A DNA stretch of 47,963 nucleotides from an uncultured Methanosarcinaceae archaeon (GTDB lineage: Archaea > Halobacteriota > Methanosarcinia > Methanosarcinales > Methanosarcinaceae), in NCBI GenBank assembly GCA_963721455.1, contig CAVRJG010000073.1, positions 1 through 47,963 on the forward strand, read 5' to 3'. This document shows, piece by piece, positions 41,797-47,963 of this stretch. The first letter of the stretch is position 1, and each line of letters opens with the position of its first letter. Position numbers and translations under genes: made by a program. Under the pieces are notes generated by a model. It was not told the DNA's origin. It ran no database searches and was given only the letters and a program-made list of their open reading frames with translations.

Positions 41797-43560
41797 TCAC
41801 ACCCCTCTTTTCTCTCGGTACAGTTCGATTGCTCGTCTGACCCTTTCTTCCTCGATCATCCCGGTGGTAGAGGCAGTTTCAAAAAACCTTTTCGGAAGAG
41901 TGAGGTTTTCAAACTTGAAGCCGAATTTCTTCTTCAGTTCATATTTTTTCCTGAAAACATCCTTGCCTAATTCTTTCAATTCTTCTTCGGTTCTCTCTAT
42001 CCCTATACACCTGAGGGCCTCAATTATGTTTTCATATGTATAGACATTCCTGGCAAAGAGACAGGCAACCATGCAGTTCAGGATACTTCTGCGATCTTCT
42101 TCATCGATTATATAGTCAACAATCTGTTCATCCGAAATCGGGTGGTTAAATGCTTTCTGGTCTGCTGCATAGCCTGCATTGTCAAGATGGGAATGTCGGA
42201 AACCCACACTGAGCCCAAGCACGTTTCCAAGCCCTGTATGGTAACCGGGAATTTCCAGGCCTCCGAGCTGGACTGCAAATTCTTCTCCCCCATACTTTTT
42301 TGAGGCATAATCCACCCCCTTGCCCAGGGCTGCATAGAAGTCATTTGGCGCCTGGACTACAAGGTCTATTGCCCTCAGGTATGCAGCCTTGTTTCCCCAG
42401 GAAAGATTGAGTCCCATAGTATCTTCAGTGGAAATTTTTCCGCGCTGCTGCATTTCTGTTACCCAGGCGAGCACCACTCCCATGCTGATTATGTCGACTC
42501 CGGCTTTTTCACAGGCATCGATCAATTCGAGCACGGCTTCGGGATCGGCTACTCCCAGGTTCGAACCGAGGGCATAGATCAATTCGAAATCATAGGAAAT
42601 ATTCAGGGACTCATACTCATGGGCTTTTGAGAATTGACGCTTTAGCATAGCCACATGGACACAACCTATGGGGCAGCCTGCACAGGAAACCCGCCGGATC
42701 AGGTATTTTTCCGCAAAGAGCTCTCCTGATATCGTTTCAGCCCCTTCGAAAGAAGCTACCTGCAGGTTCCGGGTAGGCAGGCCTTTGAGTTCGTTTAAGA
42801 CCAGGATGTTTTCGCTTGTGCCTAGGTTATGGTACTTCTCAGTGAGTCCTGTTTTCACAATTGTGTCGTAGAGCATGCTAAAAGTCTTTCTGTAGGCACT
42901 GTGCTCAGGGCTTTTTATCTCCCTGTTTCCGGAAATCAGAAGAGCTTTAAGTTTCTTTGCTCCAAAAACCGTTCCAAGCCCGAGGCGCCCGAAGTGACGG
43001 TAGGTATCAACATTGACACTTGCATATGTGATCCCTTTTTCTCCTGCAGGCCCTATCCGAATAATACTGCGCCTGCCGGCTCCGGGCTCTACCTCGCGGA
43101 GGATTTTCCCTACGTCAATTGCTGAAGAAAGATGCCATATGGAAGATGCGTCCCTGAAAGTAACCTTATCATCATGAACTGCCACATACACAGGGTATCG
43201 GGAAGCACCTTTGATAACAATTGTTTCGTATCCGGAATAGCGCATGGACATGGCAAGGTGTCCTCCTGCGTAGGACTCCCCTAGCTCGCCGTTAAGAGGA
43301 GAACGAAACAGTGCAACGGTTTTGGTACATGTCGGGTATACGCCGGAGAGAGGCCCTGTGCTGAGGATGACTGGCATTTCCGGGTCAAGAGGGCCGGTGC
43401 CTTCTACATATTCCTCGAGCATTAGGTTCGTGGCAACCCCTACGCCTCCCAAGTACTTTTCATAGAGGTCTCGCCTGTCCTTAATATGATAGCTCTGTTT
43501 GGTCAGGTCAATGTAAAGTACATTTGTAAGGCCCGGAATAGCATACTGCTCTGTCGTCAT
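41797..43560 (-). CDS. Aldehyde ferredoxin oxidoreductase family (tungstopterin) protein
   Basis: YLGGVG, RSPLNG..ESYAGG, IGPAGE, GRLGLGTVFGAKKLKA, CAGCPIGC. Confidence 0.93.
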   Translation of the reverse strand: MTTEQYAIPGLTNVLYIDLTKQSYHIKDRRDLYEKYLGGVGVATNLMLEEYVEGTGPLDPEMPVILSTGPLSGVYPTCTKTVALFRSPLNGELGESYAGGHLAMSMRYSGYETIVIKGASRYPVYVAVHDDKVTFRDASSIWHLSSAIDVGKILREVEPGAGRRSIIRIGPAGEKGITYASVNVDTYRHFGRLGLGTVFGAKKLKALLISGNREIKSPEHSAYRKTFSMLYDTIVKTGLTEKYHNLGTSENILVLNELKGLPTRNLQVASFEGAETISGELFAEKYLIRRVSCAGCPIGCVHVAMLKRQFSKAHEYESLNISYDFELIYALGSNLGVADPEAVLELIDACEKAGVDIISMGVVLAWVTEMQQRGKISTEDTMGLNLSWGNKAAYLRAIDLVVQAPNDFYAALGKGVDYASKKYGGEEFAVQLGGLEIPGYHTGLGNVLGLSVGFRHSHLDNAGYAADQKAFNHPISDEQIVDYIIDEEDRRSILNCMVACLFARNVYTYENIIEALRCIGIERTEEELKELGKDVFRKKYELKKKFGFKFENLTLPKRFFETASTTGMIEEERVRRAIELYREKRGV

Positions 43561-44075
43561 TTTTTCTCCTCCGACTGTTTTTCTCCGTAAAGCTCTTTAT
43601 GGGATGCAGTAGAGCTAACCGGGCTCGTATCCGGAGCCGGGCCCATGTCAGTAATTTTTATTTCCCCGCTGTCTTCTACTTCAATCATTTCCAGCACATC
43701 ATGGGGACAGAACTTCGGGCAAACCCCACAGTGCTTGCAGATTACTGCTTTTTTTTCCGCATCCAGATGGATAGCCCCCATTAAGCAGGCTTCTATACAG
43801 TTCCCGCAACCATCACAGATCTCTTTATTGAGATTGACCCCTCCCCCTTTCCGTTTTGTCAGCGCGCCAAGCGGACAGGCCCTCATACATGGGGGGTCGA
43901 TACATGCATGGCAGACAATTTGAACATAAGGAGTTTCGATTCCTCCGCGAGTCTGGATATCAATTCTGCTGTTTTTCAAAGATATGGTATCATACCAGGT
44001 TCTTGCGCAGGCCATCATACAGGAATAGCAGCCTATGCAACGGGCCGGATTTGCAACTTTTAACCTTTTTGCCAT
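43557..44075 (-). CDS. 4Fe-4S dicluster ferredoxin-like protein, coupled to AOR by ATGA overlap
   Basis: CIGCYSCMMAC, CHACIDPPCMRACP, CDGCGNCIEAC, CKHCGVCPKFCP. Confidence 0.93.
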   Translation of the reverse strand: MAKRLKVANPARCIGCYSCMMACARTWYDTISLKNSRIDIQTRGGIETPYVQIVCHACIDPPCMRACPLGALTKRKGGGVNLNKEICDGCGNCIEACLMGAIHLDAEKKAVICKHCGVCPKFCPHDVLEMIEVEDSGEIKITDMGPAPDTSPVSSTASHKELYGEKQSEEKK

Positions 44076-44191
44076 TATTTCCCACTCAGTTTCCTCTTTT
44101 AAGAAAGTCTGTGTCCTGGTTTATATAATGTATTATCGAAATGCAGCAGTAATCAAGCCAGGGATTTACGGAGCAAATTTTCAAGAGATGG

Positions 44192-44306
44192 CAAGGATTT
44201 CCTGTGTAATATCAAGGATTTCCTATGTAATATCAAAGATTTCCTGTGTAATATCAAAGATTTCCTGTGTAATATATAAGACTGCATTAATATAAGACTG
44301 CATTAA
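44192..44306. repeat. Four tandem 21-bp repeats followed by two ~17-bp repeats
   Basis: CAA(G/A)GATTTCCT(G/A)TGTAATAT x4; TATAAGACTGCATTAA x2. Confidence 0.9.
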
Positions 44307-44433
44307 AAGAAATCCTTTTTTGATGTAAATCGAAATGTCTTTATTCTCTGCTCGCATACATAGGAAAGTGGATTCCGGTTTGTTAAACAATTAATAAATA
44401 GTTATCGAAGATATCCTGATCTGGAAGGTTCGT

Positions 44434-44550
44434 ATGCAACAAAATGAAATGATACAGCAAAACAAAATGATACAGCAAAACAGAGTGATAATCGGGACTT
44501 TCAGTGTACTGTTTACTTTGTTATTGCTAATCGGTTTGTGCTTCGTCTGA
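44434..44550 (+). CDS. Small membrane peptide, 38 aa MQQNEMIQQNKMIQQNRVIIGTFSVLFTLLLLIGLCFV
   Basis: ATG after GGAAGGT; single hydrophobic helix; paralogous to 45080-45160. Confidence 0.65.
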   Translation: MQQNEMIQQNKMIQQNRVIIGTFSVLFTLLLLIGLCFV

Positions 44551-45079
44551 TCCCTTACCCCTTGCGGGTCATGGAGCTTCCGGAGCAGCGATTCAATCTT
44601 CAGAAGGATTGAGTGCTTTCTCACAGGCATAACTGCCTGGCTTGCCGTGAAGCGCAGATGCAAAAAAGTTGTTATGGGCCGGAGCCGGATATTTTCTTTG
44701 CGGCTCCTATTAGTTTGAAGTTCCCTTTAACCTCAGGGATCCCAGAATTCTCCTGGCTTTCCCTGGGCTTTTCCTAACAGGGAGGACAATTCCAGCTTAC
44801 TTGCCGGCCCGGAAAGGAAGTTTCCGTTTTCCTCAGGTTTTAGGACAATTTTTTCGAACATAATTTCCCGGCAAAAATATTTCGGGCCGGCGAAGCTGAA
44901 AAAATGCTCATCTCCCCTGTATATAAGGAAACTGTGCTGAAAAATTCCTTTTTGAGTTTAAATAGAAAACTTTTTTATTTCCGTATCACGTAAATAGGAT
45001 AGTGAATTCCGGTTTGTTGAAAAGAGAACTGATCAGCTATCGGAGATATTAGGACATAATCTGATATGGAAGGTTCCTT

Positions 45080-45160
45080 ATGCAGCAAAACAAGATGATA
45101 GCTGGCACGTATGGCTTAATGTTCGTGGTGGTCTTGTTAATCGGCTTGTTACTGGTATAA
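45080..45160 (+). CDS. Small membrane peptide, 26 aa MQQNKMIAGTYGLMFVVVLLIGLLLV
   Basis: ATG after GGAAGGT; paralog of 44434-44550 with conserved frame and stop position. Confidence 0.65.
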   Translation: MQQNKMIAGTYGLMFVVVLLIGLLLV

Positions 45161-45568
45161 CCCGAAATTCCCCAAATCTTTCCCTCTGATTTCTGGTCGT
45201 ACCCTGAGCAGACAACGAGAAACGCAACGATCGGATGTCTTTTTGGGCCTCGGCCTTAAATGTCTGATGTGTGCCTGAAAAGGTCGTAAGAAATCCTGAA
45301 TAATTGGGACTGAAACACGGAAAATGATTTTTCCATCCGTGCCTTTTTACCGGCAGCTTACAGTCAGTTCAGGTTTCATAGTTTTGGTTTAAATGATCTT
45401 TTTTGCCAATATTTTGTTACGAGACCTGTTATTGAGATCCTGTCGCTTATATACTTATAATAATTTTTTCTACGGAAAAATTATTTCTTATCAGGAATTA
45501 GATTATACCCTGAGAATATCTCTGTATTTATGAGAGAATTTAAATCACTATTTTAAGGATGAAACAAC

Positions 45569-45706
45569 ATGGAAAAATGTGAAAGCTGCGGAAGAGAAGT
45601 TGAGAGTTTTATCACTATCAAAGGACAAAAGCTCTGCATCGAATGTGCCGTTAATGCTCAGAAGGACATTGATCCTGACAGCCTAAATTTCAGTGCGTGC
45701 ATGTGA
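45569..45706 (+). CDS. 45-aa zinc-finger-like small protein
   Basis: MEKCESCGREVESFITIKGQKLCIECAVNAQKDIDPDSLNFSACM; two CxxC; AAGGATGA upstream; T-rich terminator downstream. Confidence 0.75.
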   Translation: MEKCESCGREVESFITIKGQKLCIECAVNAQKDIDPDSLNFSACM

Positions 45707-45973
45707 TTCTGTTACCATAAGGCCTTCTAAGGCTGCTTTTTTCTATTTTAAATACATTTTTTTCTCCATAAGGCCTGATCATTTTTTCGAGGTTGTCCAG
45801 TAGCCTGAACATTAATAGCTTTGACTCTGCCAGATATTCTACATATTTATGTCCTTCAACTCCTTGACCTCAGGATAGTGAATAGTTAATTGTAAGTGAA
45901 GTACAATGTGATCAGCACATACTGAAAAATATTATGATTAGGGGTTAAGTCTCCTCTGGAATATCCTTCTTAA

Positions 45974-46198
45974 GGGATCAGAGTCCTGAACAGGTCACAG
46001 ATAATCTACGCCTGCAGGTTCAAAGGAAATAAATTCGATACCGTAGACAGGCCTGGGTACGTAAAATCAATAGTGGATTTCGCTCTTGAAAACCAGAATC
46101 TCAGAGAAGACGTGCTTGAATACCTCTGGGAGATCCTTGAAGCTGAAAAGGTTCCAGTACAAAGGGGAGAGAGAGATAATAACAGAGCCATCGGCTGA
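45974..46198 (+). pseudogene. C-terminal remnant of UTP-glucose-1-phosphate uridylyltransferase (GalU-like)
   Basis: GIRVLNRSQIIYACRFKGNKFDTVDRPGYVKSIVDFALENQNLREDVLEYL; in-frame TAA directly upstream. Confidence 0.65.
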
Positions 46199-46315
46199 GA
46201 GAATCATAATTTGAGATAAATGAGAAATTCTGCGAAGAATGAGAACTTAATTGAAAACGAGAACTTAATTGAAAATCAGAACTTAAACAAAAATCCGAAC
46301 TAATAAAAAATTTAG

Positions 46316-46398
46316 TGCGAGGGAAGGGAGTCGAACCCTTGAACCCCTGCGGGAATGGATCTTGAGCCCATCGCCTTTAACCACTCGGCAACCCTCGC
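46316..46398 (-). tRNA. tRNA-Leu(CAA)
   Basis: GCGAGGGTTGCCGAGTGGTTAAAGGCGATGGGCTCAAGATCCATTCCCGCAGGGGTTCAAGGGTTCGACTCCCTTCCCTCGCA; cloverleaf with long variable arm. Confidence 0.96.
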
Positions 46399-46448
46399 AC
46401 AATTGATTTTATTTCTTGTCTAAATATTCTCTAGTCTTCCTGATTATA

Positions 46449-46487
46449 TCTTGAGCCTGTCACCGTTGACCGCTTGGTTACTCCCGC
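46449..46487 (-). pseudogene. Orphan 5' half of a second tRNA-Leu(CAA)
   Basis: GCGGGAGTAACCAAGCGGTCAACGGTGACAGGCTCAAGA: acceptor 5' strand, D arm, anticodon loop; no 3' half follows. Confidence 0.7.
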
Positions 46488-46648
46488 ATTTTATGGAAGC
46501 CAATAAGGTAACGATAGAACTAGCATATAAAGCTAATCCTATAAGTAAGCTAATCCTGTAAAATTTAAATTCCAGAGATATTACCACTATATTTTTCTGT
46601 TTTCCGGCTTCAGATTTCCTGCTTCAAACTTTAAGTCTTACCGGACCT

Positions 46649-46975
46649 TCAGGCATCTTCTCCTGAACTATTTAAATGAACCCAGTCAAGATACTCCCTT
46701 TCTCCTTCAATTCCCCAGAATTCTATTGCAGGCATTTCATACGTGTGCAATGACTTTACGAGCCTTGTGATTTCTTCAAAGCGTGAAGAATCAGTTTTTA
46801 CAAACATGGCGATCTCATTGTCTTCTTCGATCTTTTCTTTCCATCTGTAAACCGAAGATACTGGAAATATATTCACGCAGGCTGCAAGCCTCTTTGAAAC
46901 CAGTTCTCTTGCAATCTCTGATGCATTCTCCATATTTCCAGCAGTAATATATACAATTCCAAGCATAGGCATCAA
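46649..46975 (-). CDS. cutA: Divalent cation tolerance protein
   Basis: LVSKRLAACVNI..SVYRW..KT..LHTYEMPAI..YLDWV. Confidence 0.95.
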   Translation of the reverse strand: MMPMLGIVYITAGNMENASEIARELVSKRLAACVNIFPVSSVYRWKEKIEEDNEIAMFVKTDSSRFEEITRLVKSLHTYEMPAIEFWGIEGEREYLDWVHLNSSGEDA

Positions 46976-47131
46976 CAGATGTCAACCATTACTTAATTAA
47001 CTTTTTTAAATCCTTCTTTTCTCTTCAAAAAATAATTATTCTATTGCTTCAATTCAGCGAAAGTCTTGCTTGATACATAGGTTGCAACGAGTTTTGTAGT
47101 TGTCGACGGAATTGGGAGAGGGAGCGCGAAC

Positions 47132-47176
47132 ATACCCTGTTACTTGCAGCGGGGTGCGCCAGCTCAGCTTTGATTT
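47132..47176. repeat. Short palindromic repeat, homolog of the element interrupted by the IS stack
   Basis: ATACCCTGTTACTTGCAGCGGGGTGCGCCAGCTCAGCTTTGATTT versus reconstructed ATACCCCGCAGCTTGCCGTGGGGTGCACCAGCGCAATTTTTATTT (36801/41674). Confidence 0.7.
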
Positions 47177-47341
47177 ATCACTTTATATCGCGTTGCTTTT
47201 TTATCTTTTTTCTTCTATGAGGCGTCCACTATTCTGCTGACCATTAAGCCGGCAGGTCCTCATTGTTCACTCCTAAAAGGGGATTAAATCCGAATTCTGT
47301 GGGAATCGGGTAACAGCATTAGCTTCCTAAAAAATTGGCAT

Positions 47342-47660
47342 TCAATAGAAATTCAGGAGCTTTATTAACAACAGAACCCCCATGATGATAGGCCAGTACA
47401 GCACCTTCACGTACAGGTTGTCCTTTGTATCAAAGGGATCTCCATATGGGACACAAAAGCTATTGAATTCAGAGAAACGGCAAGAATTGCCAGGTACAGT
47501 ATGAGATAGAAATATTCGAGGTAGATGATACTGTCCGTGGGGATTTTAGTCCTGAGGGAGGCGTGGGAAATGATAAGAACAAAAAAGACGGAGACACAGT
47601 AGGCAAGGACTCAGGAAGAATTGAACCCGAACTGGTTTTTCCTTTCTTCCTTGGTCGTTA
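47342..47660 (-). pseudogene. C-terminal multi-TM remnant, possibly of a pentameric ligand-gated channel-like protein
   Basis: FGFNSS*VLAYCVSVFFVLIISHASLRTKIPTDSIIYLEYFYLILYLAILAV..YWPIIMG; internal stop and frameshift. Confidence 0.45.
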
Positions 47661-47662
47661 TT

Positions 47663-47963
47663 CACTGTGGAAGATTGAATAAAGCTGTTTTTCCAAAATC
47701 AGTAAAATATCCATTTCAATATGGTCCTAATATTTTAGCTTCAGCACTCAATAATTTGAGAGTTCCATTTGAGAATAACCATGCAGAAAGAGGCATCAGG
47801 ATGATGAAACTACAGCAGAAAATATCAGGAACTTTCAGAACCATACAAGGAGCGGAAGCTTTCTGCAGAATTAGAGCATATATTTCGACCATTAGAAAGA
47901 ATGGTTTACCTGTTATAGATGGTATTCTCGCGGCGTTCAGCGGAGCGCCGTTAACTATACCCT
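47663..47963 (+). mobile_element. IS66-family transposase remnant with internal deletion, runs to window end
   Basis: HCGRLNKAVFP..QYGPNILAS fused to VPFENNHAERGIRMMKLQQKISGTFRT..GAEAFCRIRAYISTIRKNG. Confidence 0.85.

Follow-up and report, generated by a model that had tools for sequence, protein, structure and literature searches.

The stretch of DNA analyzed here, hereinafter the window, comprises 47,963 nt of contig CAVRJG010000073.1 from an uncultured Methanosarcinaceae archaeon (assembly GCA_963721455.1) and holds, between a minus-strand operon for an aldehyde:ferredoxin oxidoreductase (AOR) and a ferredoxin on one side and a Zn-ribbon open reading frame (ORF) on the other, two same-strand cassettes that lie ~640 bp apart, each with a small ORF (sORF) for a short peptide with a single hydrophobic segment. 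The original prediction had described them as paralogous units with leaders that sequester the ribosome-binding site (RBS) and had proposed an archaeal type I toxin-antitoxin-like or dual-function small RNA (sRNA) system. The features that make up the two units, in coordinates of the window, are the following.

44192..44306, no strand assigned: upstream tandem repeats found with Tandem Repeats Finder (TRF), 4 x 21 nt followed by 2 x 16 nt, motif GATTTCCTGTGT.
44331..44345, plus strand: core promoter of unit 1, with a CGAAA resembling the TFB recognition element (BRE) at 44331-44335 and a TATA-like TTTATT at 44340-44345; kept in 18/18 aligned orthologs.
44368..44433, plus strand: leader of unit 1, 66 nt, with the 5' end inferred by homology; 5' block GGATTCCGG at 44370-44378, mid block TATCGAAGATAT at 44403-44414, Shine-Dalgarno (SD) sequence GGAAGGT at 44423-44429.
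44434..44550, plus strand: sORF1, 38 aa, MQQNEMIQQNKMIQQNRVIIGTFSVLFTLLLLIGLCFV; a Q/N-rich polar head and a C-terminal transmembrane (TM) helix; ortholog of sORF_305 of Methanosarcina mazei.
44551..44646, plus strand: post-stop stretch of unit 1, indel-rich and poorly conserved (identity 0.50, gaps 31%).
44647..44665, plus strand: 3' module of unit 1, GTGAAGCGCAGATGCAAAA; conserved, the alignment columns that hold it (301-330) having an identity of 0.73.
44681..44707, plus strand: 3' hairpin of unit 1, GGAGCCG-(GATATTTTCTTTG)-CGGCTCC, with a U-rich loop; conserved (identity 0.83).
44964..44979, plus strand: core promoter of unit 2, AGAAAAC followed by TTTATT (44974-44979); the spacing to GTGAATTCC (45002) equals that in unit 1.
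45002..45079, plus strand: leader of unit 2, inferred, 78 nt, with the same three blocks as unit 1, an 11-nt insert before CTGAT and the SD GGAAGGT at 45068-45074.
45080..45160, plus strand: sORF2, 26 aa, MQQNKMIAGTYGLMFVVVLLIGLLLV; it corresponds to the sORF1 core, with no counterpart of the 12 repeat-derived residues at the N-terminus.
45317..45349, plus strand: distal hairpin of unit 2, CACGGA/TCCGTG followed by CCTTTTT, a candidate 3' end that is not conserved in unit 2 orthologs.

In both peptides, the hydrophobic segment extends to the C-terminus, behind the polar, Q/N-rich head; the best 19-aa Kyte-Doolittle means are 2.6 for sORF1 and 2.5 for sORF2, with one TM segment in each. The two units are homologous beyond chance. 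When the whole 3.9-Mb genome was searched at the DNA level with unit 1, unit 2 was the sole real match (E = 1.2e-7, 71% over ~100 nt), the rest being chance-level alignments of 16-27 nt with E values of at least 0.1, and a hidden Markov model (HMM) of the family recovered the two units from this genome at E = 4.3e-22 and E = 5.3e-12, respectively, with the next match at E = 0.2. The coordinates, homology E values and hydropathy all agree with the original description of two paralogous cassettes for small one-TM peptides on sRNA-like transcripts. The 18-nt triplication reported within sORF1 is indeed a repeat but not a triplication, since TRF finds 2.4 copies of the 18-nt unit (44447-44490). 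This repeat is old, being present in 14 of the 17 unit 1 orthologs, with the remaining three shorter by two codons. Moreover, the internal Met at the end of the repeat begins a 26-aa segment that is collinear with the unit 2 peptide, so that unit 1 is a unit-2-like core with a repeat-derived extension of 12 residues. A Pfam scan of both peptides yielded no families at E <= 1, an ESM Atlas search gave no usable match for the peptide, and a scan of positions 43000-47963 with Rfam covariance models (E <= 1) detected a tRNA and one sub-threshold chance match, both outside the cassettes.

The common promoter-like element that had been noted in the two units is present, with the same distance of 28 nt in both from the first T of TTTATT (44340 and 44974) to the G of GTG[G/A]ATTCC (44368 and 45002) downstream. 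The shared leader blocks are there as well, namely, GGATTCCGG, TATCG[A/G]AGATAT and CTGAT.TGGAAGGTTC, along with the arrangement of the SD and the ATG. In the leader alignment of the unit 1 family, the mean column identity is 82%, and 1-nt indels between clades disrupt the reading frame 5' of the ATG, so the leader is non-coding. The 5' block, which is positioned over and just after the inferred transcription start site (TSS), is nearly invariant. The repeats at 44192-44306 may represent an amplified upstream regulatory element of unit 1; their motif, GATTTCCTGTGT, is present three times in locus L021 and once in each of L016, L024 and L032, at about -95 to -125 relative to the TSS. The sequence GGAA-N6-TTCC at 44363-44376, across the inferred TSS, matches the NrpR operator consensus of Methanococcus maripaludis, as given in the accessible part of the source (PMC2723118). 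An NrpR operator at this position is no more than a weak lead: the window has 6 copies of the motif, where 1.6 are expected, and in the M. mazei ortholog the sequence is GGAT-N6-TTCC. A minus-strand promoter in the mid-leader block, where TCGATAACTATTTATT resembles the sense TCGAAATGTCTTTATT, was discarded: in unit 2, the TATCGGAGATAT block is retained but the TATA part is not, and the ferredoxin gene has a TATA-like TTATATAA of its own ~50 nt upstream of the gene start.

In M. mazei Go1, the sRNA MM_3414 with its sORF_305 is orthologous to unit 1, whereas unit 2 is a paralog that lacks the 12-residue N-terminal extension and is absent from the M. mazei catalogue. In the parts of the M. mazei study that were available to us, MM_3414 is an sRNA of 398 nt (NC_003901.1:4055563-4055960, plus strand; 5' start GCGGATTCCGG) that carries sORF_305 and sORF_306, and sORF_305 (NC_003901.1:4055630-4055746, plus strand) encodes a 38-aa peptide, MQQDEIIQHHKMMQQNKVIIGTFSVFFILITLISLYWV (Tufail et al. 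2024, Nat Commun, PMC11456600). The same tables give for sORF_305 'manual curation Ribo-seq: yes', the location 'on MM_3414 / on sRNA', absence from the current annotation, BlastP 'no', a bottom-up mass spectrometry (MS) peptide, MQQDEIIQHHK, and a TMHMM helix at residues 20-37, with no Western blot entry in this row (PMC11456600). By the convention of the paper, the RNA is up under nitrogen limitation (log2 fold change +1.35, adjusted P value 0.029), and so are the ribosome footprints (+2.19, adjusted P value 1.8e-4), with a translation efficiency of about 0.5-0.9 that does not change significantly (PMC11456600). Within the genus of the window, locus L030 of the M. mazei representative genome (G013) has a peptide and a leader that are letter-identical to the published sORF_305 and MM_3414; the sORF1 peptide of the window is 66% identical to this peptide, and the G013 genome contains one copy and no unit 2. 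The list of M. mazei sRNAs reportedly originates from the work of Jager et al. published in PNAS in 2009. The 5' end of MM_3414 (GCGGATTCCGG) aligns to position 44368 of the window, 28 nt after TTTATT, so that M. mazei transcribes the conserved leader, which in the window would be 66 nt long. MM_3414 and unit 1 share the peptide architecture, the promoter, the blocks of the 66/67-nt leader, the 3' hairpin and a location divergent from the ferredoxin gene; they differ in that the window genome has an extra, shorter paralog, unit 2, and that the sORF_306 frame is not conserved in the window.

The original prediction had named a match to an already characterized sRNA or small protein as a refutation, and this turned out to be half the case: unit 1 is catalogued, but a characterized function was not found in the searchable texts. 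In the accessible main text of the M. mazei study, the names sORF_305 and MM_3414 do not appear, the locus being present in the tables only, with no function assigned (PMC11456600). A search of the available paper texts for MM_3414 gave unrelated matches only, and no functional work on sORF_305 or MM_3414 was found in the searchable portions of M. mazei small-protein papers (PMC12704099, the MtrR paper and the spRNA/asRNA preprint discussed below); the supplement of PMC12704099 has no entry for the peptide, and the protein of the MtrR paper is sORF16, which consists of 49 aa and has no TM helix.

Selection on the sORFs was assessed with 17 unit 1 ORFs, leaving out locus L026 (in which a stop follows the first ATG and the C-terminus is altered), and 7 unit 2 ORFs, leaving out the frameshifted copy L019. 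For unit 1, the pooled ratio of nonsynonymous to synonymous differences (pN/pS) is 0.28 and the median ratio of the corresponding rates (dN/dS) is 0.18, with 22/12/34 variable columns at the first, second and third codon positions; the respective values for unit 2 are 0.33, 0.21 and 14/7/20. Pairwise identity at codon positions 1/2/3 is 0.82/0.91/0.69, and the frame and the stop are retained in 17 of the 18 unit 1 orthologs. These substitution patterns indicate that both sORFs are subject to purifying selection, and the suggested check of conservation and dN/dS thus came out in favor of coding: the sORFs are conserved in relatives, with pN/pS of ~0.3 in both paralogs. With third codon positions at 0.69, the leader blocks (0.79-0.82) and the 3' hairpin (0.83) are more conserved than synonymous sites; for the adjoining stretches, identity is 0.45-0.62.

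The phyletic distribution is narrow. At the DNA level, unit 1 (leader and ORF) was detected in 20 of 36 genomes of the genus and in none of 24 from other families of the order. The peptide HMM finds the family in 24 of 40 other same-genus genomes that are at least 90% complete and in 6/6 sister-genus genomes, with one marginal match in a third genus and none in 107 genomes from other families of the order; a search of 1.84 billion representative proteins returned 12 matches, 11 of them family members and one a spurious repeat protein. Judging from these searches, the family appears to be confined to two sister genera. Two copies, on the same strand, are present in 12 of the 41 same-genus genomes (G000 included), mostly 0.35-1 kb apart, with two pairs at 2.6 and 11.6 kb. 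The family is vertically inherited and syntenic, with 1-2 copies per genome.

The GC stems that had been predicted 3' of both sORFs exist; the first one is conserved in relatives, the second one is not. In the orthologs, the unit 1 hairpin is GGAACCG / CGGUUCC with the loop UAUUUUCUUUG, against GGAGCCG / CGGCUCC in the window, and in the RNAalifold consensus one pair is AU in 15 of 17 sequences, GC in the window (a compensatory change) and GU, an intermediate, in L020. The hairpin is lost in L031, and its pattern has a single occurrence in the genome. Across the full-length alignment, double changes are seen in just 4 of the 33 pairs predicted by RNAalifold. Unit 2 has the leader blocks of unit 1 but not its 3' modules. 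An sORF_306-like ORF (44613..44777) was considered as coding and rejected: the frame is conserved neither in the window nor in other species, which makes the conservation of the 3' region non-coding, and in L024, for instance, there is no frame across the hairpin of more than 13 aa from a start codon. In L018, L028 and L029, the distal module of the unit 1 3' region (..TTGGCCAGCCCGGCAGAGGACGTTGTAGAAAAA..) has undergone tandem duplication.

RNA from the locus is represented by metatranscriptome contigs from four studies, which reveal neither strand nor RNA ends. The longest span is that of a 1293-nt contig (run X1), which corresponds to 44420-45715, beginning in unit 1, including unit 2 and reaching the end of the Zn-ribbon ORF, with 19 differences and 3 gaps; further contigs correspond to 44414-44551 (identical), 44423-44573, 44522-44684 and 44575-44736, and two more cover 44891-45171. 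Positions 44092-44411 have no contig cover while two runs cover the ferredoxin gene, which is a hint only and no evidence for the 5' end. A contig of run X3 skips 44576-44641 (66 nt), with 2 other letters in place; given that this skip fits the indel-rich post-stop stretch of the orthologs, strain variation, rather than splicing, is its probable cause.

So what could be the nature of these cassettes? The explanation that appears to accommodate the facts best, and that we consider probable, is that the cassettes are leadered small mRNAs for tail-anchored small membrane proteins rather than a toxin-antitoxin pair. Under this scenario, each cassette would be promoted independently. Most of the characterized sRNA-encoded small membrane proteins act on a membrane protein or complex, and the peptides of the two units would, similarly, insert in the cytoplasmic membrane and modulate such a protein or complex. 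Their expression would respond to nitrogen limitation, and the conserved non-coding blocks would control transcription, mRNA processing or stability, or translation, and may in addition confer a regulatory role on the RNA itself. Several observations weigh against this interpretation. Rather than at 44368, the contigs of three studies start at 44414, 44420 and 44423 (~11-20 nt before the ATG of sORF1), and the homologous CTGAT (~45061) is where a unit-2-like contig starts; the contig starts near CTGAT might reflect 5' processing, which is a trait of some type I toxin mRNAs, or an artefact of low 5' coverage. Furthermore, as the contigs are strandless, some of them may derive from antisense RNA. 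Translation is documented solely for unit 1 and in another organism, through its M. mazei ortholog, and the MS support consists of a single N-terminal peptide. The family is missing from 16 of the 40 same-genus genomes and hence is dispensable, and neither a functional demonstration nor a membrane partner was found for any family member.

Could the RNA itself have a function beyond that of a message? An RNA of ~340-400 nt transcribed from unit 1 might double as a base-pairing or protein-binding regulator that acts through the leader blocks and the 3' hairpin with its U-rich loop, UAUUUUCUUUG. This possibility, which is compatible with the small-mRNA interpretation, we regard as tentative and rather unlikely. 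It is suggested by the identity of the non-coding blocks (0.79-0.83, against 0.69 at third codon positions) and by the hairpin, which is unique in the genome and has its stem kept through the compensatory GC in the window and the GU in L020, along with the 3' conservation that, as the sORF_306 frame is not conserved, is not coding. In addition, in the available parts of their paper, the authors of the M. mazei catalogue regard translated sRNAs as candidate dual-function RNAs (PMC11456600). On the other side, no target was identified, and the conserved blocks in the untranslated regions (UTRs) may equally serve the transcription, stability, termination or translation of the mRNA itself; double changes are limited to 4 of the 33 predicted pairs, no Rfam family matches, and unit 2 has the leader blocks without the 3' modules. 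Of the dual-function claim of the original prediction, then, an sRNA with a translated sORF stands for M. mazei, and the regulatory role is a possibility.

A type I toxin-antitoxin-like module would entail membrane-damaging peptides, with the 5' block, GGAUUCCGG, masking the SD in an inert primary transcript, and release either by processing ~18 nt upstream of the AUG or by loss of an RNA antitoxin. This interpretation, which in our judgment is improbable, hinges in part on the leader structure. The 5' block can pair with CUGGA..GUUC (arms GGAUUCCGG / CUGGAAGG), and RNAalifold chooses this helix in both the short, leader-only alignment and the full-length one; the proposed 5' block:SD helix is drawable in 95% of cells, with hardly any variation in either arm. 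However, the consensus helix is worth just -2.8 kcal/mol, none of its 9 pairs is changed on both sides, and, given how little the two arms vary, column shuffles do as well as the real alignment in 498-500 of 500 trials. The folding z-score against shuffles is +0.36 for the unit 1 leader of the window, the minimum free energy structure of which lacks the masking helix, and -1.2 for the unit 2 leader, in which the SD is paired elsewhere. Pairing between the 5' block and the SD has a mean ensemble probability of 0.06 over 26 leaders, two of which lie above 0.5, and shuffling the 5' 12 nt leaves the SD pairedness unchanged, at 0.59 vs 0.59. Thus, the pairing of ATTCC with GGAAGG(T) that had been proposed for both units can be drawn in both, but sequestration of the RBS by it gains no support, with no covarying pairs, a probability of 0.06 and shuffles performing equally: the 5' block:RBS pairing is possible yet unsupported as a structure.

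The other components of the toxin-antitoxin interpretation can be compared with bacterial type I toxin mRNAs, such as those of Hok/Sok, TisB/IstR-1, DinQ/AgrB, Ldr/Rdl and Ibs/Sib. Like these, the units encode short hydrophobic peptides with one TM segment, form tandem paralogs and have a long UTR, partly structured in its 3' portion, and a 5' block able to mask the SD. The contig starts at 44414-44423 and at the unit-2-like CTGAT would fit a processed end without the masking block, but contig ends are not RNA ends. Unlike in the bacterial systems, no RNA antitoxin was found in the genome: the DNA search detected no complementary sequence elsewhere, the best other alignments being 16-27 nt long with E values of at least 0.1. 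There is no sequence homology to these systems either, given that no Pfam family matches at E <= 1, hence none of the Hok, Ldr, Ibs, Fst and TisB families. In growing M. mazei cultures, the ortholog undergoes translation and was detected by MS, with induction under nitrogen limitation at the RNA and ribosome levels; in the units, the TM helix is located at the very C-terminus, with no charged tail. The copy number of 1-2, strict synteny and purifying selection likewise speak against a toxin. The type I interpretation of the original prediction is therefore not upheld, in view of the missing complementary partner in the genome, the missing Pfam toxin match and the production of the ortholog in growing cells; of the defining features of type I systems, the size and hydrophobicity of the peptides are those seen in the cassettes. 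A more elaborate version, in which GGAUUCCGG represses both paralogs of a processing-activated archaeal type I toxin mRNA and cleavage at CUGAU, ~18 nt before the AUG, activates a membrane-active peptide that is induced under nitrogen limitation and kept in check by an RNA, seems very improbable to us. To our knowledge, type I systems are yet to be demonstrated in archaea; our literature query yielded bacterial systems and the M. mazei spRNA preprint. Finally, the notion that the units are non-coding sRNAs with incidental open frames is barely tenable, for even though the M. mazei RNA is listed among sRNAs and the ORFs are very short, the codon-position pattern, the pN/pS of ~0.3 in both paralogs, the frame and stop kept in 17 of 18 unit 1 orthologs, and the ribosome footprints and MS peptide of the ortholog all contradict it.

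Returning to small mRNAs for membrane proteins, the relevant bacterial comparison is with small membrane-protein regulators and dual-function RNAs such as MgtS, AcrZ, SgrS/SgrT and SR1/SR1P. The units have no homology to MgtS, AcrZ, SgrT or SR1P and differ from them in being archaeal units driven by BRE/TATA. In M. mazei, sRNA154 has been proposed as a dual-function RNA, as stated in the accessible part of the catalogue paper (PMC11456600). With all of these, the units have in common transcripts of sRNA size, peptides of <50 aa that act on larger complexes or at or within the membrane, and condition-dependent expression. Another M. mazei example is spRNA24/sP24 with asRNA94, described together with four other spRNA/asRNA pairs (Jordan et al. 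2025, bioRxiv 10.1101/2025.10.28.685009), a preprint that we cite from its available portions. Like the units, spRNA24/sP24 comes from the same genus and is an sRNA-encoded, stress-responsive small protein with one predicted TM helix. According to the description, on which, rather than on sequence, this comparison is based, spRNA24 is most likely leaderless, has a cis-antisense RNA and is specific to M. mazei, whereas the units have a leader of 66-78 nt, no known antisense RNA and a genus-wide distribution. The spRNA/asRNA pairs of the preprint are at loci different from that of MM_3414, near MM0940/41, MM1838/39, MM1870/71 and MM2375/76.

The neighboring genes are the following.

41797..43560, minus strand: aldehyde:ferredoxin oxidoreductase (Pfam).
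43557..44075, minus strand: 4Fe-4S ferredoxin (Pfam), in an operon with the AOR gene.
45569..45706, plus strand: Zn-ribbon ORF, 45 aa, CxxC...CxxC; weak match to Pfam Zn_ribbon_8 (E = 0.003).

The Zn-ribbon ORF is found downstream of the cassettes in many loci, with 53-84% identity. In tblastn searches, the ferredoxin gene is divergent from the sORF in 43 of 48 loci, the exceptions being L028, L029, L035, L061 and L066. Among the 40 other same-genus genomes, which are kin and not independent, ferredoxin is present in 23 and absent in 1 of those with the sORF, and present in 6 and absent in 10 of those without it. The six ferredoxin-only genomes have no sRNA remnant within 1.3 kb, which shows linkage without obligate coupling, and a functional dependence of the cassettes on the ferredoxin operon was rejected in view of these genomes, where the ferredoxin is found without the sRNA. 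A complex prediction for the ferredoxin and the peptide scored 0.00 in both runs, a result that counts neither way. Beyond the cassettes, the Zn-ribbon ORF and a CutA1 gene (46649..46975, minus strand) flank a tRNA gene (46316-46398, minus strand; Rfam, 54 bits), and an open-ended ORF (47621-47962, plus strand), which presumably is the C-terminal part of an IS66-type transposase, runs off the end of the window.

The cassettes, then, are not evidence for archaeal type I toxin-antitoxin systems. What was an anonymous intergenic feature is now tied to a catalogued yet unstudied sRNA and small protein of M. mazei, and the present analysis adds to the catalogue a second paralog with its own promoter, evidence that purifying selection acts on both peptides, the positions of the non-coding blocks that are conserved (the one at the 5' end over the TSS, the TATCGRAGATAT one and the 3' hairpin with the U-rich loop), a narrow, two-genus distribution and a tight linkage to the ferredoxin-AOR operon. 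Small membrane proteins of methanogens are just starting to be assigned functions, as in the cases of MtrR, MtrI, sP36 and sP24, and the cassettes described here represent a well-defined, genetically tractable candidate with a response to nitrogen limitation.

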